Origin: Escherichia phage HK544
Strand: one strand, 5' to 3'
DNA length: 40,155 nucleotides
Sequence record: NC_019767.1
Part shown: piece after piece, positions 23,364-26,534 of the stretch
How the letters are laid out: every line of letters starts with the position of its first letter
Position numbering within the stretch: the stretch's first letter is position 1
Position numbers and translations under genes: made by a program
The notes under the pieces: model-generated
Database searches by the model: none
What the model was told of the DNA's origin: nothing
The model's input: only the letters and a program-made list of their open reading frames with translations

Positions 23364-23539
23364 TTCTTCCCACTCCGCCACATCGCATTCAGATATTTGT
23401 TGTCATTAACAGAACCGAAACTATTTCTCTTAAGCAATTCCTCTCTCGATGGCATTGGCTTTACGCGTTGGCGAATAATCATTTCTGCCGGAAGAATGCC
23501 GGGATTGTATGCAAGTCCTCTCATGGTAAATTCCTCAGT
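23360..23539 (-). CDS. hypothetical small protein (59 aa)
   Basis: Internal ATG of the 23360..23674 ORF overlapping the stop of the upstream 97-aa gene by 1 nt (translational coupling). Confidence 0.3.
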
Positions 23540-23828
23540 CATTACTGATAGCGCCATAGCGTGAGCGGTAATTACGCAGGCGCGGGTCAATTTCAGGGAA
23601 GTGGGTATATGTGGCTTTGCGGAATGGTCGGATTGATGTCTGGTAAATTCGCTCGCGTTCTTCTTTCTCTGCAAGCCATATACAATGGCGAAATTCCTTT
23701 TCCTTTTTCGTTTCCTGCGGTAGCGACATTATCCGATCGTAGTTTTTCCTGAATTTATCCAGCACCTCCGATACGGAATTGCCGGAACAGCGGCGTGGGT
23801 CATCCGCACCATACAGAGGCGCTGGCAT
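23535..23828 (-). CDS. hypothetical protein (97 aa)
   Basis: ORF in the leftward operon between SSB-like gene and downstream small genes; basic, Arg-rich. Confidence 0.35.
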
Positions 23829-23851: not shown

Positions 23852-24235
23852 TTAGAAGGGAATTGAATTGTCGTATTCAGGATGATTTTGATGATTGCTA
23901 CTTTGCTGCTGTTGGCTGTTTCCTGAGGTTGCAAATCCAATCTTTGCATTCAGTAATTCAAGAGTGATTGATTGACCATTTTGCCCCTGATAAACATCAA
24001 CCCTGATGTTTTCTCCGGTAATTTCTACAATGCCACCTTCAACAAGAACACTACGGTAGTAATCCGCTTGCGCTCCCGGCTTGGCAAATACAACGGCGCT
24101 GTAGTTTGTCCATTCTTTCTTTTTTGTCTGGCGATCGTAATACTGAACGCCAGCACGGATGTTGAATCCGATATTTTCCCCGGCCTGAAACTCTCTTGCG
24201 GGCTTGTTTAGTCTTACAGTAATCGAATGTGCCAT
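23852..24235 (-). CDS. ssb: ssDNA-binding protein-like (OB fold with C-terminal IPF tail)
   Basis: 127 aa from MAHSITV...; C-terminus ...EYDNSIPF resembles the acidic DDDIPF tail of bacterial SSB; TAATG overlap with erf stop. Confidence 0.5.
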   Translation of the reverse strand: MAHSITVRLNKPAREFQAGENIGFNIRAGVQYYDRQTKKKEWTNYSAVVFAKPGAQADYYRSVLVEGGIVEITGENIRVDVYQGQNGQSITLELLNAKIGFATSGNSQQQQSSNHQNHPEYDNSIPF

Positions 24236-24840
24236 TAAGCAGCCGCTCCTTCTAATTCGTCTCGTCTGATGTTGTAAACGTCCTGCGCTTTGTGCTGCTC
24301 CGGTGTGCCTTCGAGCATCTTCCACGCTTTGGCGAACGCCTGTTTAAGCTCTTCTACGGTGTTTTTCTGCATTGCTGCGTCAGTGAATGCTTTTAGAACC
24401 TGTTCAGGTGTAGGTGATGGTTTTGATTGCTTTGCTGCTGCGTTCTGCTGATGTTTATGCTCGTCTGTATCTGCATCTTTCGCATCATCAATGCCGAATA
24501 AACCATTGAGGCAATACTTGCGTGCATAAGAGCTTGTAGCTCCCGTAACTTGTGCAGAATCCATTCCTTTCTTGCTTTCTTCCTCTCGTGCAAGAGCGGT
24601 TGCCGTATGACTGTTTTCGCCATCGGTAATAGTTGCCGTGGCTTTCACGTAATACCGATCACCAATCAACACAACTTCATCGCTGATTGATAAAAACAGG
24701 CCATTCAGTAACGGCTTAACACCCTCAAGAATGTCTTCGCAGCTTCTGTATTTATATTTGCCGAATGAGTTATATTGATTCTTTGGCGCGTTCAGATTCT
24801 CCTGAATAGCTGCCAGTCTTGCGTAAAATTCTTTGCTCAT
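24235..24840 (-). CDS. erf: Erf-family ssDNA annealing recombinase
   Basis: 201 aa from MSKEFYARL; motif ATSSYARKYCLNGLFGIDD resembles P22 Erf-type proteins; paired with SSB-like gene. Confidence 0.65.
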   Translation of the reverse strand: MSKEFYARLAAIQENLNAPKNQYNSFGKYKYRSCEDILEGVKPLLNGLFLSISDEVVLIGDRYYVKATATITDGENSHTATALAREEESKKGMDSAQVTGATSSYARKYCLNGLFGIDDAKDADTDEHKHQQNAAAKQSKPSPTPEQVLKAFTDAAMQKNTVEELKQAFAKAWKMLEGTPEQHKAQDVYNIRRDELEGAAA

Positions 24841-24929
24841 ATGATTGTTCTCAGAATGGACATGGCCCAAGTAAATAACGCTGATTTAATACTTCAGTCT
24901 TTGCCGCATTTAAAAATACGCGAACACCT

Positions 24930-25100
24930 TCACGATCTCCCTTCTGGCGATACATTAACGCCTGCTGCGTGTACATGCGTCTCTGTAACTTGCTCTCCTT
25001 CACTGTGGTTGCAAGTGGCATGAATATCTCCTTCGTTACCGATTAATTCTTTCATCTGAAGAATGAATTCTTCGTCTGACCAGTTATCTGTAAAACTCAT
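24930..25100 (-). CDS. small ORF (56 aa), acidic
   Basis: ATG with SD AGGAA, ATGA overlap with the stop of the upstream 50-aa ORF; a competing 56-aa ORF (24851..25021, other frame, SD AAGGAGAT) overlaps it. Confidence 0.3.
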   Translation of the reverse strand: MSFTDNWSDEEFILQMKELIGNEGDIHATCNHSEGEQVTETHVHAAGVNVSPEGRS

Positions 25101-25249
25101 TTCCTGCGATACCACGGAATGTTGATCGCTGATTTCATCGCTTTATTTGCTTCAAGCCACATTTTTGAATCACCAATAAATCTGGCTATTACTGCTTTGT
25201 TTTGTGCAGCACGAAGCATCTGATGATTTATGGCTATTTCATTGCGCAT
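25097..25249 (-). CDS. small ORF (50 aa)
   Basis: ATG with GAGG SD; stop overlaps the next start (ATGA); below ORF-track cutoff. Confidence 0.3.
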   Translation of the reverse strand: MRNEIAINHQMLRAAQNKAVIARFIGDSKMWLEANKAMKSAINIPWYRRK

Positions 25250-25365
25250 AATAAGACCTCAACTCTTTTCCATCCGTCACGTAATTTACGGGTGATTCGT
25301 TCAAGTAAAGATTCATTTAGTTGGAAGGCACCCATGCGAGCGCCTCCCGCGATTGCGTAAATCAT
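25234..25365 (-). CDS. small ORF (43 aa)
   Basis: ATG with AAGGAA SD 24 nt downstream of the coiled-coil gene stop; below ORF-track cutoff. Confidence 0.3.
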   Translation of the reverse strand: MIYAIAGGARMGAFQLNESLLERITRKLRDGWKRVEVLLCAMK

Positions 25366-25389
25366 GGGTGGTTCCTTATGTTGGTTTTA

Positions 25390-26358
25390 TTAGTAGGTTA
25401 TTTTTGTTGCGAATACTTCGCCTTTTACGATGGCTGTTATGATATTTTTAGCAACATCTTCTGATGCACCAACCTTGATAAGGTCAGCAAGTATTTTGTT
25501 ATTTACTTCTTTCCGGTGCGCTTTATCCTTTGCTCTACGCTCTTCTTCTTCCTTGATTCTTTTTTCTTCTGCTATTCTGGCTTGCTCTTTTGCTTCAGCA
25601 TCGCGACGGATTCGTTCAGCCTCCTCCTGTGCTTTTCTGCGTTCTGCTTCAATTGCTGCCTGCTTTTCTCTTTCAGCTCGTTCTGCTGCCTCTTTTGCTT
25701 CGCGCTGTGCTCGCTGCTCGGCTTCAATGCGTTCACGCTCTGCACGTTCCGCTGCGGCCTTAGCTTCTGCTTCTCGCCTTGCTGCTGCTTCAATTTCGGC
25801 TTTTGCCTTTGCTTCGGCTTCTGCTCTGGCTTTCTCTTCAGCTTCTCTTTTTAAGCGTTCTTCATGCTCTCGCTTTTCCTGCTCCGCTTTGAGTCTTGCC
25901 TCTTCTCTTTTGCGGTCAAATTCGCGATCCATCAAAATAGCTATTTCATGGTCAGACTCAATTTGCTTTGCGAGAGCTTCAGCTGCTGCCTTAGCTTCTT
26001 CTTCGGCTTTAATCCGCGCCTGTTCTTCCTCATAATCAGTAAGAGGCTGGCGCGCCTTGGCTTTCAGTTCATCAAGGCGATCACGCACTGTCTTGCGGTT
26101 GGCATCAATTAGCTTTGGAATTTCCTTCAGTTCAGCAACAAGGTCTTTGCCAAGACCATCGAGATATGTTTTCGTCTGCGCAACTTTATACGCCAGAGAA
26201 GCGATCTCCTTTCTGCCCTTTGCCGTTGTGATATCAGGCACAAAGGACATAACTTCACGTTCAACCTTTTGAAGGATTTCTTCAATCTGGTCTGCAGACT
26301 GAAATACAGTCATTGCATTTGCTTTTTCAATAACAACTAAATCTGTTACTTCACTCAT
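25390..26358 (-). CDS. coiled-coil protein with long low-complexity Ala/Glu/Lys/Arg repeat region
   Basis: 322 aa from MSEVTDLV (SD GGAGGA); central roughly 150 aa is (A/E/K/R)-rich repetitive coiled-coil; function unknown. Confidence 0.5.
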   Translation of the reverse strand: MSEVTDLVVIEKANAMTVFQSADQIEEILQKVEREVMSFVPDITTAKGRKEIASLAYKVAQTKTYLDGLGKDLVAELKEIPKLIDANRKTVRDRLDELKAKARQPLTDYEEEQARIKAEEEAKAAAEALAKQIESDHEIAILMDREFDRKREEARLKAEQEKREHEERLKREAEEKARAEAEAKAKAEIEAAARREAEAKAAAERAERERIEAEQRAQREAKEAAERAEREKQAAIEAERRKAQEEAERIRRDAEAKEQARIAEEKRIKEEEERRAKDKAHRKEVNNKILADLIKVGASEDVAKNIITAIVKGEVFATKITY

Positions 26359-26370
26359 ATATCCTCCGTC

Positions 26371-26398
26371 AAAAAAAACTGCCCTCACACTGGAGGGC
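26371..26398 (-). terminator. intrinsic terminator in the leftward operon (tL-like)
   Basis: On the - strand: GCCCTCCAGTGTGAGGGC hairpin followed by TTTTTTTT, directly upstream of the coiled-coil gene SD. Confidence 0.45.
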
Positions 26399-26534
26399 AA
26401 AGAAGATTTCCAATAATCAGAACAAGTCGGCTCCTGTTTAGTTACGAGCGACATTGCTCCGTGTATTCACTCGTTGGAATGAATACACAGTGCAGTGTTT
26501 ATTCTGTTGTTTATGCCAAAAATGAAGGCCACCA

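Follow-up and report, generated by a model that had tools for sequence, protein, structure and literature searches.

The four small open reading frames upstream of erf in Escherichia phage HK544 very probably belong to the standard distal part of the lambdoid early-left (pL) operon, which reads cIII, kil, ORF3 (gp42.1 type) and ORF4 (gp42/HkaM type), followed by erf, ssb and abc2. The window, i.e. the whole stretch of DNA analyzed (40,155 nucleotides, sequence record NC_019767.1), carries these frames at 25234..25365, 25097..25249, 24930..25100 and 24851..25021, all on the minus strand, where a sequence-only reading had placed them. All four match PHROG families with E-values from 1e-20 to 1e-38, two of the four (cIII and kil) pass Pfam gathering thresholds, and frame-specific purifying selection is measurable in the set, so that these are more than chance ORFs. 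As a whole, the four-gene block is familiar and unremarkable: the functions of cIII and kil in lambdoid phages are textbook matter, and annotations of ORF3 and ORF4 date back to the genomes of HK97, HK022 and Sf6. The part of the block that stands out is ORF4, a member of the HkaM family, which is among the few constant, uncharacterized parts of enterobacterial phage recombination modules and is marked by an invariant terminal Pro-Phe and by co-occurrence with a phage single-strand binding protein (SSB) in 149 of 151 loci.

Gene organization upstream of erf

The sequence-only reading regarded the small ORFs as genuine and located them at the site at which small host-takeover proteins are encoded in lambdoid phages; the ORFs are indeed conserved and the site is the right one. 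It also noted no resemblance to lambda Gam, and a Gam homologue is in fact absent. Its statement that none of the ORFs resembles CIII or Kil is wrong, because ORF1 and ORF2 pass the Pfam cut-offs as CIII (PF02061) and Kil (PF06301). These identifications by curated thresholds refute, for ORF1 and ORF2, the view that the interval encodes three or four new micro-proteins with no relation to CIII, Kil and Gam of lambda, possibly new host-takeover or anti-defense factors. ORF3 and ORF4 do lack a match in Pfam, NCBIfam and PDB as well as a function in the literature searched, but both have long been annotated as hypothetical genes (HK97 gp42/42.1, Sf6 gp29/30), which leaves the view of novel micro-proteins highly improbable. 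A search of NCBIfam with five small proteins gave no hits. A scan of genome contigs returned eight loci only.

The cIII gene

ORF1 (25234..25365, minus strand, 43 amino acids) is classed by its profile matches as CIII, a member of the FtsH-inhibitor family; proteins of this family inhibit FtsH and thereby stabilize CII. The product scores 56.0 bits (E = 4e-15) with Lambda_CIII (PF02061), for which the cut-off is 25.7, and matches phrog_550 with E = 1.6e-20. In a pairwise alignment its core, ESLLERITRKLRDGWKR, is identical in 17 of 17 positions to the lambda-type sequence in the cIII product of HK620; we take this stretch to be the central amphipathic region of the lambda protein that carries CIII activity. 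The gene thus shares with lambda cIII the family by curated threshold and an identical core, and it holds the same place, opening the cIII-kil pair of the pL operon and overlapping the kil start. The product is shorter, with 43 amino acids as compared to 54 in lambda, and differs at both ends: the N-terminus is P22-like and the C-terminus VEVLLCAMK, ending in LCAMK, is of the HK022/HK97 type, and because of this combination the gene is regarded as a mosaic allele. CIII is annotated in mEp213, Sf6, HK97 and HK022, and both cIII and kil bear these names in dozens of phage records whose DNA is 94-98% identical. A Shine-Dalgarno (SD) sequence, AAGGA, precedes cIII at a spacing of 7 nt. The thermoregulator of lambda cIII went undetected, since an Rfam scan of 24600..25700 with E-values up to 1 yielded no match.

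The kil gene

ORF2 (25097..25249, minus strand, 50 amino acids) is likewise assigned to a known family, that of the cell-division (FtsZ) inhibitor Kil, whose members inhibit the FtsZ ring and so make cells filamentous. Its product covers the full Lambda_Kil profile (PF06301, positions 1-31), scoring 72.6 bits (E = 1.7e-20; cut-off 27.6), and matches phrog_2055 with E = 3e-35. A pairwise alignment with HK022 Kil gives 49 of 50 identical residues, and the motif IA.FIGD.KM is common to this protein and lambda-type Kil. The first 16 nt of kil overlap the end of cIII (25234..25249, ATGCGCAATGAAATAG), a layout likewise annotated in HK97, HK022, Sf6 and HK620, and the gene is preceded by the SD sequence GAGG at a spacing of 7 nt. 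Whereas gam comes after kil in lambda, the place is taken here by ORF3 and ORF4.

ORF3 and its overlap with ORF4

ORF3 (24930..25100, minus strand) encodes 56 amino acids from its ATG; in the ORF listing it was extended upstream to a GTG at 25115. It is of the HK97 gp42.1, HK022 42.1 and Sf6 gp30 type and matches phrog_2123 with E = 3.8e-38, while a PDB sequence search with it found no match. The peptide (MSFTDNWSDEEF...) has a pI of 4.4, and its N-terminal part of 26 codons (25023..25100) one of 4.1. The gene begins in an ATGA stop/start overlap with kil at 25097..25100 (minus strand). The junctions of the small ORFs had been described as a chain of such overlaps, but this is the sole true ATGA junction in it; cIII and kil overlap by 16 nt instead. 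An SD had also been attributed to each ORF, which holds for cIII, kil and ORF4; ORF3 has AGGA just 1 nt from its ATG, and because of this spacing its translation probably relies on the ATGA coupling to kil. Nor is ORF3 the member of the chain that adjoins erf, since its stop lies at 24930, 89 nt ahead of the erf ATG (24840). The nearest ORF is ORF4, which ends 10 nt before that ATG.

ORF4 (24851..25021, minus strand, 56 amino acids, pI 10.1) lies in the +1 frame relative to ORF3 and overlaps it by 92 nt. It had been taken for a mere alternative frame but is the more strongly and more widely conserved of the overlapping pair. In Nei-Gojobori tests over 3039 sequence pairs, pN/pS in the overlap is 0.31 in the ORF4 frame versus 2.11 in the ORF3 frame, and the region exclusive to ORF4 gives 0.29. 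The 80 close relatives contain three variants of the ORF4 protein and about 25 variants in the ORF3 frame. Over codons 1-26 of ORF3 the ratio is 0.41 in the ORF3 frame, as compared to 1.26 and 1.39 in the other frames. These values lead us to regard both ORF3 and ORF4 as protein-coding, with selection in the overlap acting on ORF4 only. For ORF3, selection is accordingly seen as limited to the acidic first 26 codons, and the tail (24930..25021), whose sequence and stop position vary between clades, as unconstrained read-through inside ORF4. The locus illustrates cleanly how two genes can overlap on the same strand with constraint on a single partner.

It is unlikely that ORF4 is the sole gene, with ORF3 a spurious frame that owes its conserved N-terminal part to constraints at the nucleotide level (the kil 3' end, the ORF4 SD and recent mosaic exchange). 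Such a reading would fit the unconstrained tail, the SD placed 1 nt from the ATG, the presence of the ORF4 SD within the 'NEGD' codons and the occurrence of ORF4 without ORF3 in S9-5, Erwinia phage 59 and others; moreover, the first approximately 50 nt are 98% identical in many phages and are uninformative on protein selection. The constraint on codons 1-26 is, however, specific to the ORF3 frame, and the indels found in the N-terminal part among relatives (-15 nt and -3 nt) are both in-frame. In Klebsiella phage phiKp_30 the start codon and the ATGA coupling are kept although a cIII-like ORF takes the place of kil upstream. A divergent Enterobacter version preserves the pattern M-S-x-x-D-x-W-S-x-x-x-F-x-x-x-M-x-x-L-I-G through conservative replacements. 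We therefore retain ORF3 as a gene with a constrained N-terminal part.

A programmed +1 ribosomal frameshift normally joining ORF3 and ORF4 into an 82-aa fusion is very improbable. ORF4 does lie in the +1 frame of ORF3, and at least ten natural in-frame fusions with differing junctions exist (HK97 gp42.1, P0009, P0010, P0015, P0023, P0058, P0060, P0064, P0070 and P0079), but a single-base deletion (or two insertions) in the 92-nt overlap accounts for each of them, several lack invariant ORF4 residues, and fusions are rare (1 in about 170 loci). Inspection by eye revealed no slippery site or RF2-type in-frame stop, the strong SD and ATG of ORF4 are kept everywhere, and ORF4 occurs alone in phages without ORF3. 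In an AlphaFold model of fusion P0009 the N-terminal part shows no confident packing (pLDDT 56-66). As products of single-base deletions, several of them losing invariant residues, the 82-aa fusions were also rejected as a Rosetta-stone signal.

ORF4 and the HkaM family

ORF4 is placed in the HkaM family (phrog_1723) together with HK620 HkaM, HK97 gp42, HK022 gp42 and Sf6 gp29. It matches phrog_1723 over its full length with E = 4.5e-32, HK620 HkaM matches the same profile with E = 3.6e-33, and hhalign relates the ORF4 profile to HkaM with 95% probability. These proteins share the PHROG, a hairpin-plus-tail architecture, the Pro-Phe terminus and the position directly upstream of a recombinase gene. 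The HkaM branch differs in its length of 60-62 aa and its acidic tails (SELPF, NDLPF), as compared to the tail GPCPF of ORF4. Residues A21, R25, E43, L51, P55 and F56 are invariant among members just 30% identical. Of 5426 complete E. coli genomes, 1091 (about 20%) carry ORF3/ORF4 genes.

The SD of ORF4, AAGGAG (25028..25033, minus strand), lies 6 nt before the ATG within the ORF3 codons E-G-D, and divergent homologues retain it as GAAGGAG. The RNA at the start of ORF4 folds no better than shuffled sequence (z = 0.16) and the SD is not sequestered; the idea of a structure-based coupling of ORF3 to ORF4 was given up for this reason.

The 'recombinase' label of phrog_1723 and phrog_2123 was rejected, as ORF3 and ORF4 are without a recombinase or annealing domain in Pfam, NCBIfam and PDB, and in PHROG-derived annotations the label of phrog_1723 is misleading. 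To our knowledge, 56 aa are too few for any known recombinase fold. A PDB sequence search with the ORF4 profile found no match, and Foldseek searches of PDB and BFVD with the ORF4 model returned only generic helical hairpins, all with E > 0.1. The literature searched on HK97 gp42, hkaM and SSB-tip mimics contained nothing about function, and HkaM is described as an orphan without known function (PMC5928155). In HK620, oligo recombineering with sak4 plus ssb alone was as efficient as with the entire module (PMC5928155), so that hkaM is dispensable in that assay.

Neighborhood of ORF4

ORF4 homologues lie 1-13 nt upstream of genes for Erf (PF04404), Rad52_Rad22 (PF04098) or AAA_24/Sak4-like proteins, or of an HNH insertion. 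SSB genes of three types are present in 149 of the 151 ORF4 loci with at least 2 kb of downstream sequence. Among 80 Erf-anchored loci, 71 combine ORF4 with SSB and none has ORF4 without SSB; the surveyed loci are related to one another as mosaics and do not count as independent samples. Five Erf-anchored loci carry SSB together with Arf in place of ORF4, and SSB therefore does not require ORF4. The HkaM family always occurs at the 5' boundary of recombination modules with an SSB, irrespective of the recombinase superfamily that follows.

ORF4 might instead matter chiefly as a leader whose translation supplies the recombinase gene with ribosomes through termination-reinitiation, and its peptide would then be functionless in itself. 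In every locus the ORF4 stop precedes the downstream ATG by 1-13 nt, the downstream SD overlaps the ORF4 stop codon (TTCTGAGG), and the erf SD is weak (GAGAA) in comparison to the strong SD of ORF4. A leader of this kind is quite unlikely in view of the low pN/pS across the whole of ORF4 (0.29-0.31), the length fixed at 56 aa, the invariant residues named above, the confident predicted fold and the synonymous variation of the tail codons. Translational coupling may well be an additional role of ORF4.

ORF3 and P22 Arf

The acidic N-terminal peptide of ORF3 could be the counterpart of the N-terminus of P22 Arf (phrog_2445), a reading to which we give somewhat less than an even chance. Arf and the N-terminal part of ORF3 are both small and very acidic (pI 4.1), both genes come right behind kil and ahead of erf, and the motif (W/F)SDEEFI near the N-terminus is common to both. 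Arf and ORF4 occur together in none of the 80 Erf-anchored loci. The two differ in that Arf overlaps the erf start directly, whereas ORF3 is kept from erf by ORF4, and in that the C-terminal half of Arf is conserved, whereas the ORF3 tail is unconstrained. Matches to phrog_2445 are below significance, both for the ORF3 N-terminus (E = 0.1) and for a 35-aa relative from Kapi1 (E = 0.06), and hhalign gives a probability of 50% over 18 columns for ORF3 versus Arf.

The ORF4 tail

AlphaFold predicts ORF4 as a helical hairpin (pLDDT 92) with helices at residues 7-27 and 30-49. The tail LLGPCPF (residues 50-56) is non-helical in the model, with a mean pLDDT of 75 in the last block as compared to 92-97 in the helices. 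The terminal Pro-Phe (P55, F56) is invariant in 50 aligned members and in 14 of 14 further full-length representatives, and family tails often carry D or E at position -3 or -4 (SELPF, NDLPF, GEPPF). Synonymous changes are seen in the tail codons for Pro, Cys, Gly and Leu. For Phe the codon is TTC throughout, directly next to the ribosome-binding site downstream, and the conservation of the tail could for this reason be partly at the nucleotide level.

The family shares the Pro-Phe-COOH end and the predicted non-helical tail with the C-terminal tip of SSB (DDDIPF in E. coli, NDYPPF in HK620). The likeness is one of two to four terminal residues; ORF4 has no OB fold and is no SSB, and its tail in HK544, GPCPF, is without the acidic residues that SSB tips use. 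In HK620, SSB stimulates Sak4 fully only with its last six residues (NDYPPF) in place (PMC5928155). We tentatively suggest that ORF4 may be an accessory factor of SSB-dependent phage recombination whose tail docks into the pocket for the SSB C-terminal tip. The exposed Pro-Phe-COOH tail would occupy the pocket that binds the tip (...D-I-P-F), either in the phage annealing protein or in a host SSB-client protein, and docking would modulate the hand-off of SSB-coated ssDNA. It is rather doubtful, if conceivable, that ORF4/HkaM proteins are SSB-tip mimics acting on the phage annealing protein or on host SSB clients such as ExoI, RecQ, PriA or RecO, with the ORF3 N-terminal peptide as an Arf-like co-factor. 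Such a mimic would steer SSB-coated ssDNA to the phage recombinase or shield it against host enzymes. ORF4 would then be an unrecognized portable accessory part of SSB-containing phage recombination modules, present in about one fifth of E. coli genomes, and a new kind of small regulator for SSB-client interactions, which could matter to recombineering based on Erf, Rad52-like or Sak4 modules.

Downstream recombination module

The first large gene of the recombination module is erf (24235..24840, minus strand), which encodes a single-strand annealing protein of 201 aa (Pfam ERF, E = 2.1e-44). Its stop overlaps the start of ssb (TAATG). The latter gene (23852..24235, minus strand), located by tblastn and translation, is of the HK97 gp40 type and its product ends in the canonical tip ...DNSIPF; the HK97 gp40 type belongs to the SSB-1b class (PMC12315714). 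An abc2 homologue (23535..23828, minus strand, 97 aa, anti-RecBCD) was found by tblastn with P22 Abc2, and the first 30 residues of its product are identical to those of P22 Abc2. Modules of the mEp234 type have been listed without an anti-RecBCD function (PMC12315714). ORF4 as the missing anti-RecBCD function was rejected because the window contains this homologue. The anti-RecBCD function of the window is assigned, by homology, to Abc2 and not to Gam.

Gene layout and identity of cIII and kil

According to the ORF listing and direct reading, four small ORFs precede erf (24235..24840) on the minus strand: ORF1 (25234..25365, 43 aa), ORF2 (25097..25249, 50 aa), ORF3 (24930..25100, 56 aa counted from the ATG) and ORF4 (24851..25021, 56 aa). 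ORF1 and ORF2 are cIII and kil by homology. They match the Pfam families Lambda_CIII (E 4e-15, 56 bits against a cut-off of 25.7) and Lambda_Kil (E 1.7e-20, 72.6 bits against 27.6), and the PHROGs assignments concur. The core of CIII, ESLLERITRKLRDGWKR, does not differ from the lambda-type sequence, and Kil is identical to HK022 Kil at 49 of 50 positions. An 801-nt stretch around the locus is found at 94-98% identity over its full length in about 20 of the phage records listed, and at least 80% of it is covered in 26; matching records include mEp234, mEp213, mEp043, HK633, Sf101 and CUS-3, and their annotation here gives two or three hypothetical proteins besides CIII, Kil and Erf. In view of these matches and annotated records, the statement of the sequence-only reading that none of the ORFs resembles Kil or CIII was wrong.

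The same reading described a chain of ATGA-coupled ORFs, each with a Shine-Dalgarno sequence (SD). An ATGA (25100..25097) is indeed shared by kil and ORF3, but the other junctions differ and there is no uniform chain: the overlap is 16 nt between cIII and kil and 92 nt between ORF3 and ORF4 (in the +1 frame), and 10 nt lie between the end of ORF4 and the erf ATG. Good SDs precede cIII (AAGGA, 7 nt spacing), kil (GAGG, 7 nt) and ORF4 (AAGGAG, 6 nt), whereas the AGGA of ORF3 is just 1 nt from its ATG, so that translation of ORF3 presumably depends on coupling to kil. Overall the observation was confirmed in part, and its interpretation as a position for small host-takeover or anti-defence proteins is partly supported.

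The window is a mosaic, HK97-like lambdoid genome; its closest relatives, mEp234 and HK446, match about 64% of the 24 kb queried at 97% identity. Mosaicism extends to the cIII allele, which combines a P22-like N-terminus (MI.AIAG.ARMG), a lambda/P22 core and the C-terminus LCAMK of HK022/HK97; this C-terminus travels with the overlapping kil start. Just upstream of cIII, a 322-aa protein (25390..26358, minus strand), mostly E/A/K/R-rich coiled-coil, has no match in Pfam; a homologue of Sf6 gp33 ('similar to phage D3 Orf53'), it is called 'TolA' in some 2025 records. A strong terminator-like hairpin (26379..26400) lies just upstream of its gene.

ORF3 and ORF4 as genes

The ORF3/ORF4 pair has been annotated before, and the locus is an ordinary one, known in many phages. 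Counterparts are HK022 42.1/42, Sf6 gp30/gp29 and mEp213_041/040, and 1091 of 5426 complete E. coli genomes carry the pair, under the PGAP name "hypothetical protein". The PHROGs concerned, phrog_2123 and phrog_1723, are described as 'recombinase', a label which reaches PHROG-based RefSeq annotation of ORF3 and ORF4 and is carried by RefSeq proteins of 52-62 aa (NC_002730 hkaM, NC_005344, NC_019720). As neither ORF has a match in Pfam, NCBIfam or PDB, the label is unsupported.

About 170 loci were gathered. Nei-Gojobori pN/pS, purely descriptive and no formal test because the 3039 pairs compared (>8% divergent) are phylogenetically non-independent, was 0.41, 1.26 and 1.39 in the ORF3, ORF4 and third frames of the 26-codon ORF3-only region, 2.11, 0.31 and 1.13 in the overlap, and 1.52, 0.29 and 0.85 in the ORF4-only region. 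Across 80 close relatives there are 3 protein variants of ORF4, against about 25 in the ORF3 frame. The two main clades diverge sharply in DNA within ORF4 with amino acids unchanged (GGA GAT CGT GAA GGT vs GGC GAC CGC GAA GGA, synonymous throughout in this frame); the ORF3 tail and stop position are not alike between them. Indels in the ORF3 N-terminus are in-frame (-15 nt in Klebsiella phage phiKp_30, -3 nt in the "MSIRDMSDEQ" type), and phiKp_30, which has no kil, retains the ATGA coupling of ORF3 after a cIII-like gene, which argues that this N-terminus is translated. Taken together, these patterns indicate that ORF3 and ORF4 are both genes, with ORF4 constrained over its full length and ORF3 effectively an acidic 26-residue peptide (pI 4.1) plus a variable tail. 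The phiKp_30 stretch (locus L009, 1165-1671) is wholly without annotation in its record and codes for the cIII-like ORF (MQQLAIAG...SFLEKLWDILKQQGRP), ORF3 minus 5 codons and an intact ORF4.

In the reference HK97 gp42.1 (83 aa; locus L007, 1501-1752), two 1-nt insertions join the N-terminal part of ORF3 to the C-terminal part of ORF4. Protein searches of public data yielded at least nine further fusions (P0009, P0010, P0015, P0023, P0058, P0060, P0064, P0070 and P0079; P0058 on 36 contigs) with differing junctions and nearly all of 82 aa, the product expected from any single-base deletion within the 92-nt overlap. Since such a deletion suffices, several fusions lack invariant ORF4 residues and only 1 occurs among the approximately 170 loci, the fusions are treated as sporadic prophage frameshift variants exposed by gene callers and do not count as evidence of a functional fusion or of programmed frameshifting. 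In an AlphaFold model of P0009 the N-terminal part has low confidence.

The N-terminus of ORF3 resembles that of Arf, the P22 accessory recombination function, in (W/F)SDEEFI, in acidity and in its place after kil, but the statistics are weak (phrog_2445, E 0.06-0.1; hhalign 50%). Phage Kapi1 has a 35-aa relative after kil and before a RecT module. An Arf-like role for ORF3 is plausible but unproven.

The ORF4/HkaM family and its context

HkaM of phage HK620, encoded 8 nt upstream of sak4, matches the PHROG of ORF4 (E 3.6e-33) and aligns to the ORF4 profile with 95% probability; it was termed an orphan of unknown function (Hutinet et al., PMC5928155). A word-indexed search gave 88 family matches, all unnamed or "hypothetical" save a few automated labels, and an exhaustive profile search of 1.84 billion proteins gave only 28 cluster representatives. 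Judged by these searches, the family is small and restricted to Enterobacterales. ES18, L, epsilon34 and many Stx phages are among a further 107 phage records that carry the HkaM branch.

For ORF4, AlphaFold (50-sequence alignment, pLDDT 92) predicts two helices, at residues 7-27 and 30-49, followed by a tail (50-56) that is not helical. Residues A21, R25, E43, L51, P55 and F56 are invariant. Pro-Phe terminates all intact members, and D/E often stands two or three residues ahead of it (SELPF, NDLPF, GEPPF, DEMPF). In the tail, the Leu, Gly, Cys and Pro codons show synonymous variation; the Phe codon is invariably TTC, followed by TGA or TAA.

The next gene starts 1-13 nt past ORF4 and encodes Erf (PF04404), a Rad52_Rad22 protein (PF04098), an AAA_24/Sak4-like ATPase (two size classes) or an inserted HNH endonuclease. 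The same ORF4 allele precedes either an Erf or a Rad52-type gene, and the change falls exactly at TTCTGAG (window 24851..24853; junctions in loci L011-L178), which marks the ORF4 3' end as a recurrent boundary of mosaic exchange.

SSB, of three types (E. coli-like, HK97-gp40-like and DUF669), is encoded in 149 of the 151 ORF4 loci that extend 2 kb or more downstream. In the reverse test, 80 loci were anchored on Erf: 71 carry ORF4 and SSB, 5 Arf and SSB, 3 Arf and Abc1 with no SSB (P22 type) and 1 SSB only; none has ORF4 without SSB, and none has both Arf and ORF4. The slot ahead of the recombinase is thus filled alternatively by ORF4/HkaM or Arf. In the window, the module 3' of erf comprises an HK97-gp40-type ssb (23852..24235, minus strand), whose start overlaps the erf stop (TAATG), and an abc2 homologue (23535..23828, minus strand). 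The SSB tip here is the canonical ...DNSIPF, vs ...DDSNPILI at the end of HK97 gp40.

Possible role of ORF4

SSB-client proteins dock on the C-terminal tip of SSB (...DDDIPF). Full stimulation of Sak4 requires that HK620 SSB keep its six C-terminal residues, NDYPPF (PMC5928155). Because ORF4 would be a small hairpin exposing an invariant Pro-Phe-COOH tail and is confined to SSB-carrying modules, we tentatively propose, as a possibility we hold to be rather unlikely, that it docks into the SSB-tip pocket of the phage annealing protein or a host client and thereby might modulate hand-off of SSB-coated ssDNA. Against this, the ORF4 tail in the window, GPCPF, is non-acidic, SSB occurs without ORF4 in five loci, the TTC-TGA-GG junction doubles as the downstream ribosome-binding site, and hkaM is dispensable in oligo recombineering, where sak4 plus ssb alone equal the whole HK620 module (Hutinet et al., PMC5928155). 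Given the weak erf SD in the window, ORF4 likely couples translation to the recombinase gene in addition, but coupling alone cannot account for its conservation at the protein level. The remaining interest lies in an uncharacterised ORF4/HkaM family with a testable Pro-Phe tail.

A C-terminal domain of about 55 aa (24235..24400 in the window Erf) is common to recombinases with unrelated cores. It is shared by the window Erf and an AAA_24/Sak4-like protein of Erwinia phage 59 (locus L004, 1680-2543; 51% identity, E 3e-17), and by P22 Erf and the Rad52-like Sf6 gp28 (locus L002; 75% identity, E 5e-31); HK620 Sak4 (228 aa) is without it. The domain looks like a portable partner-docking module.
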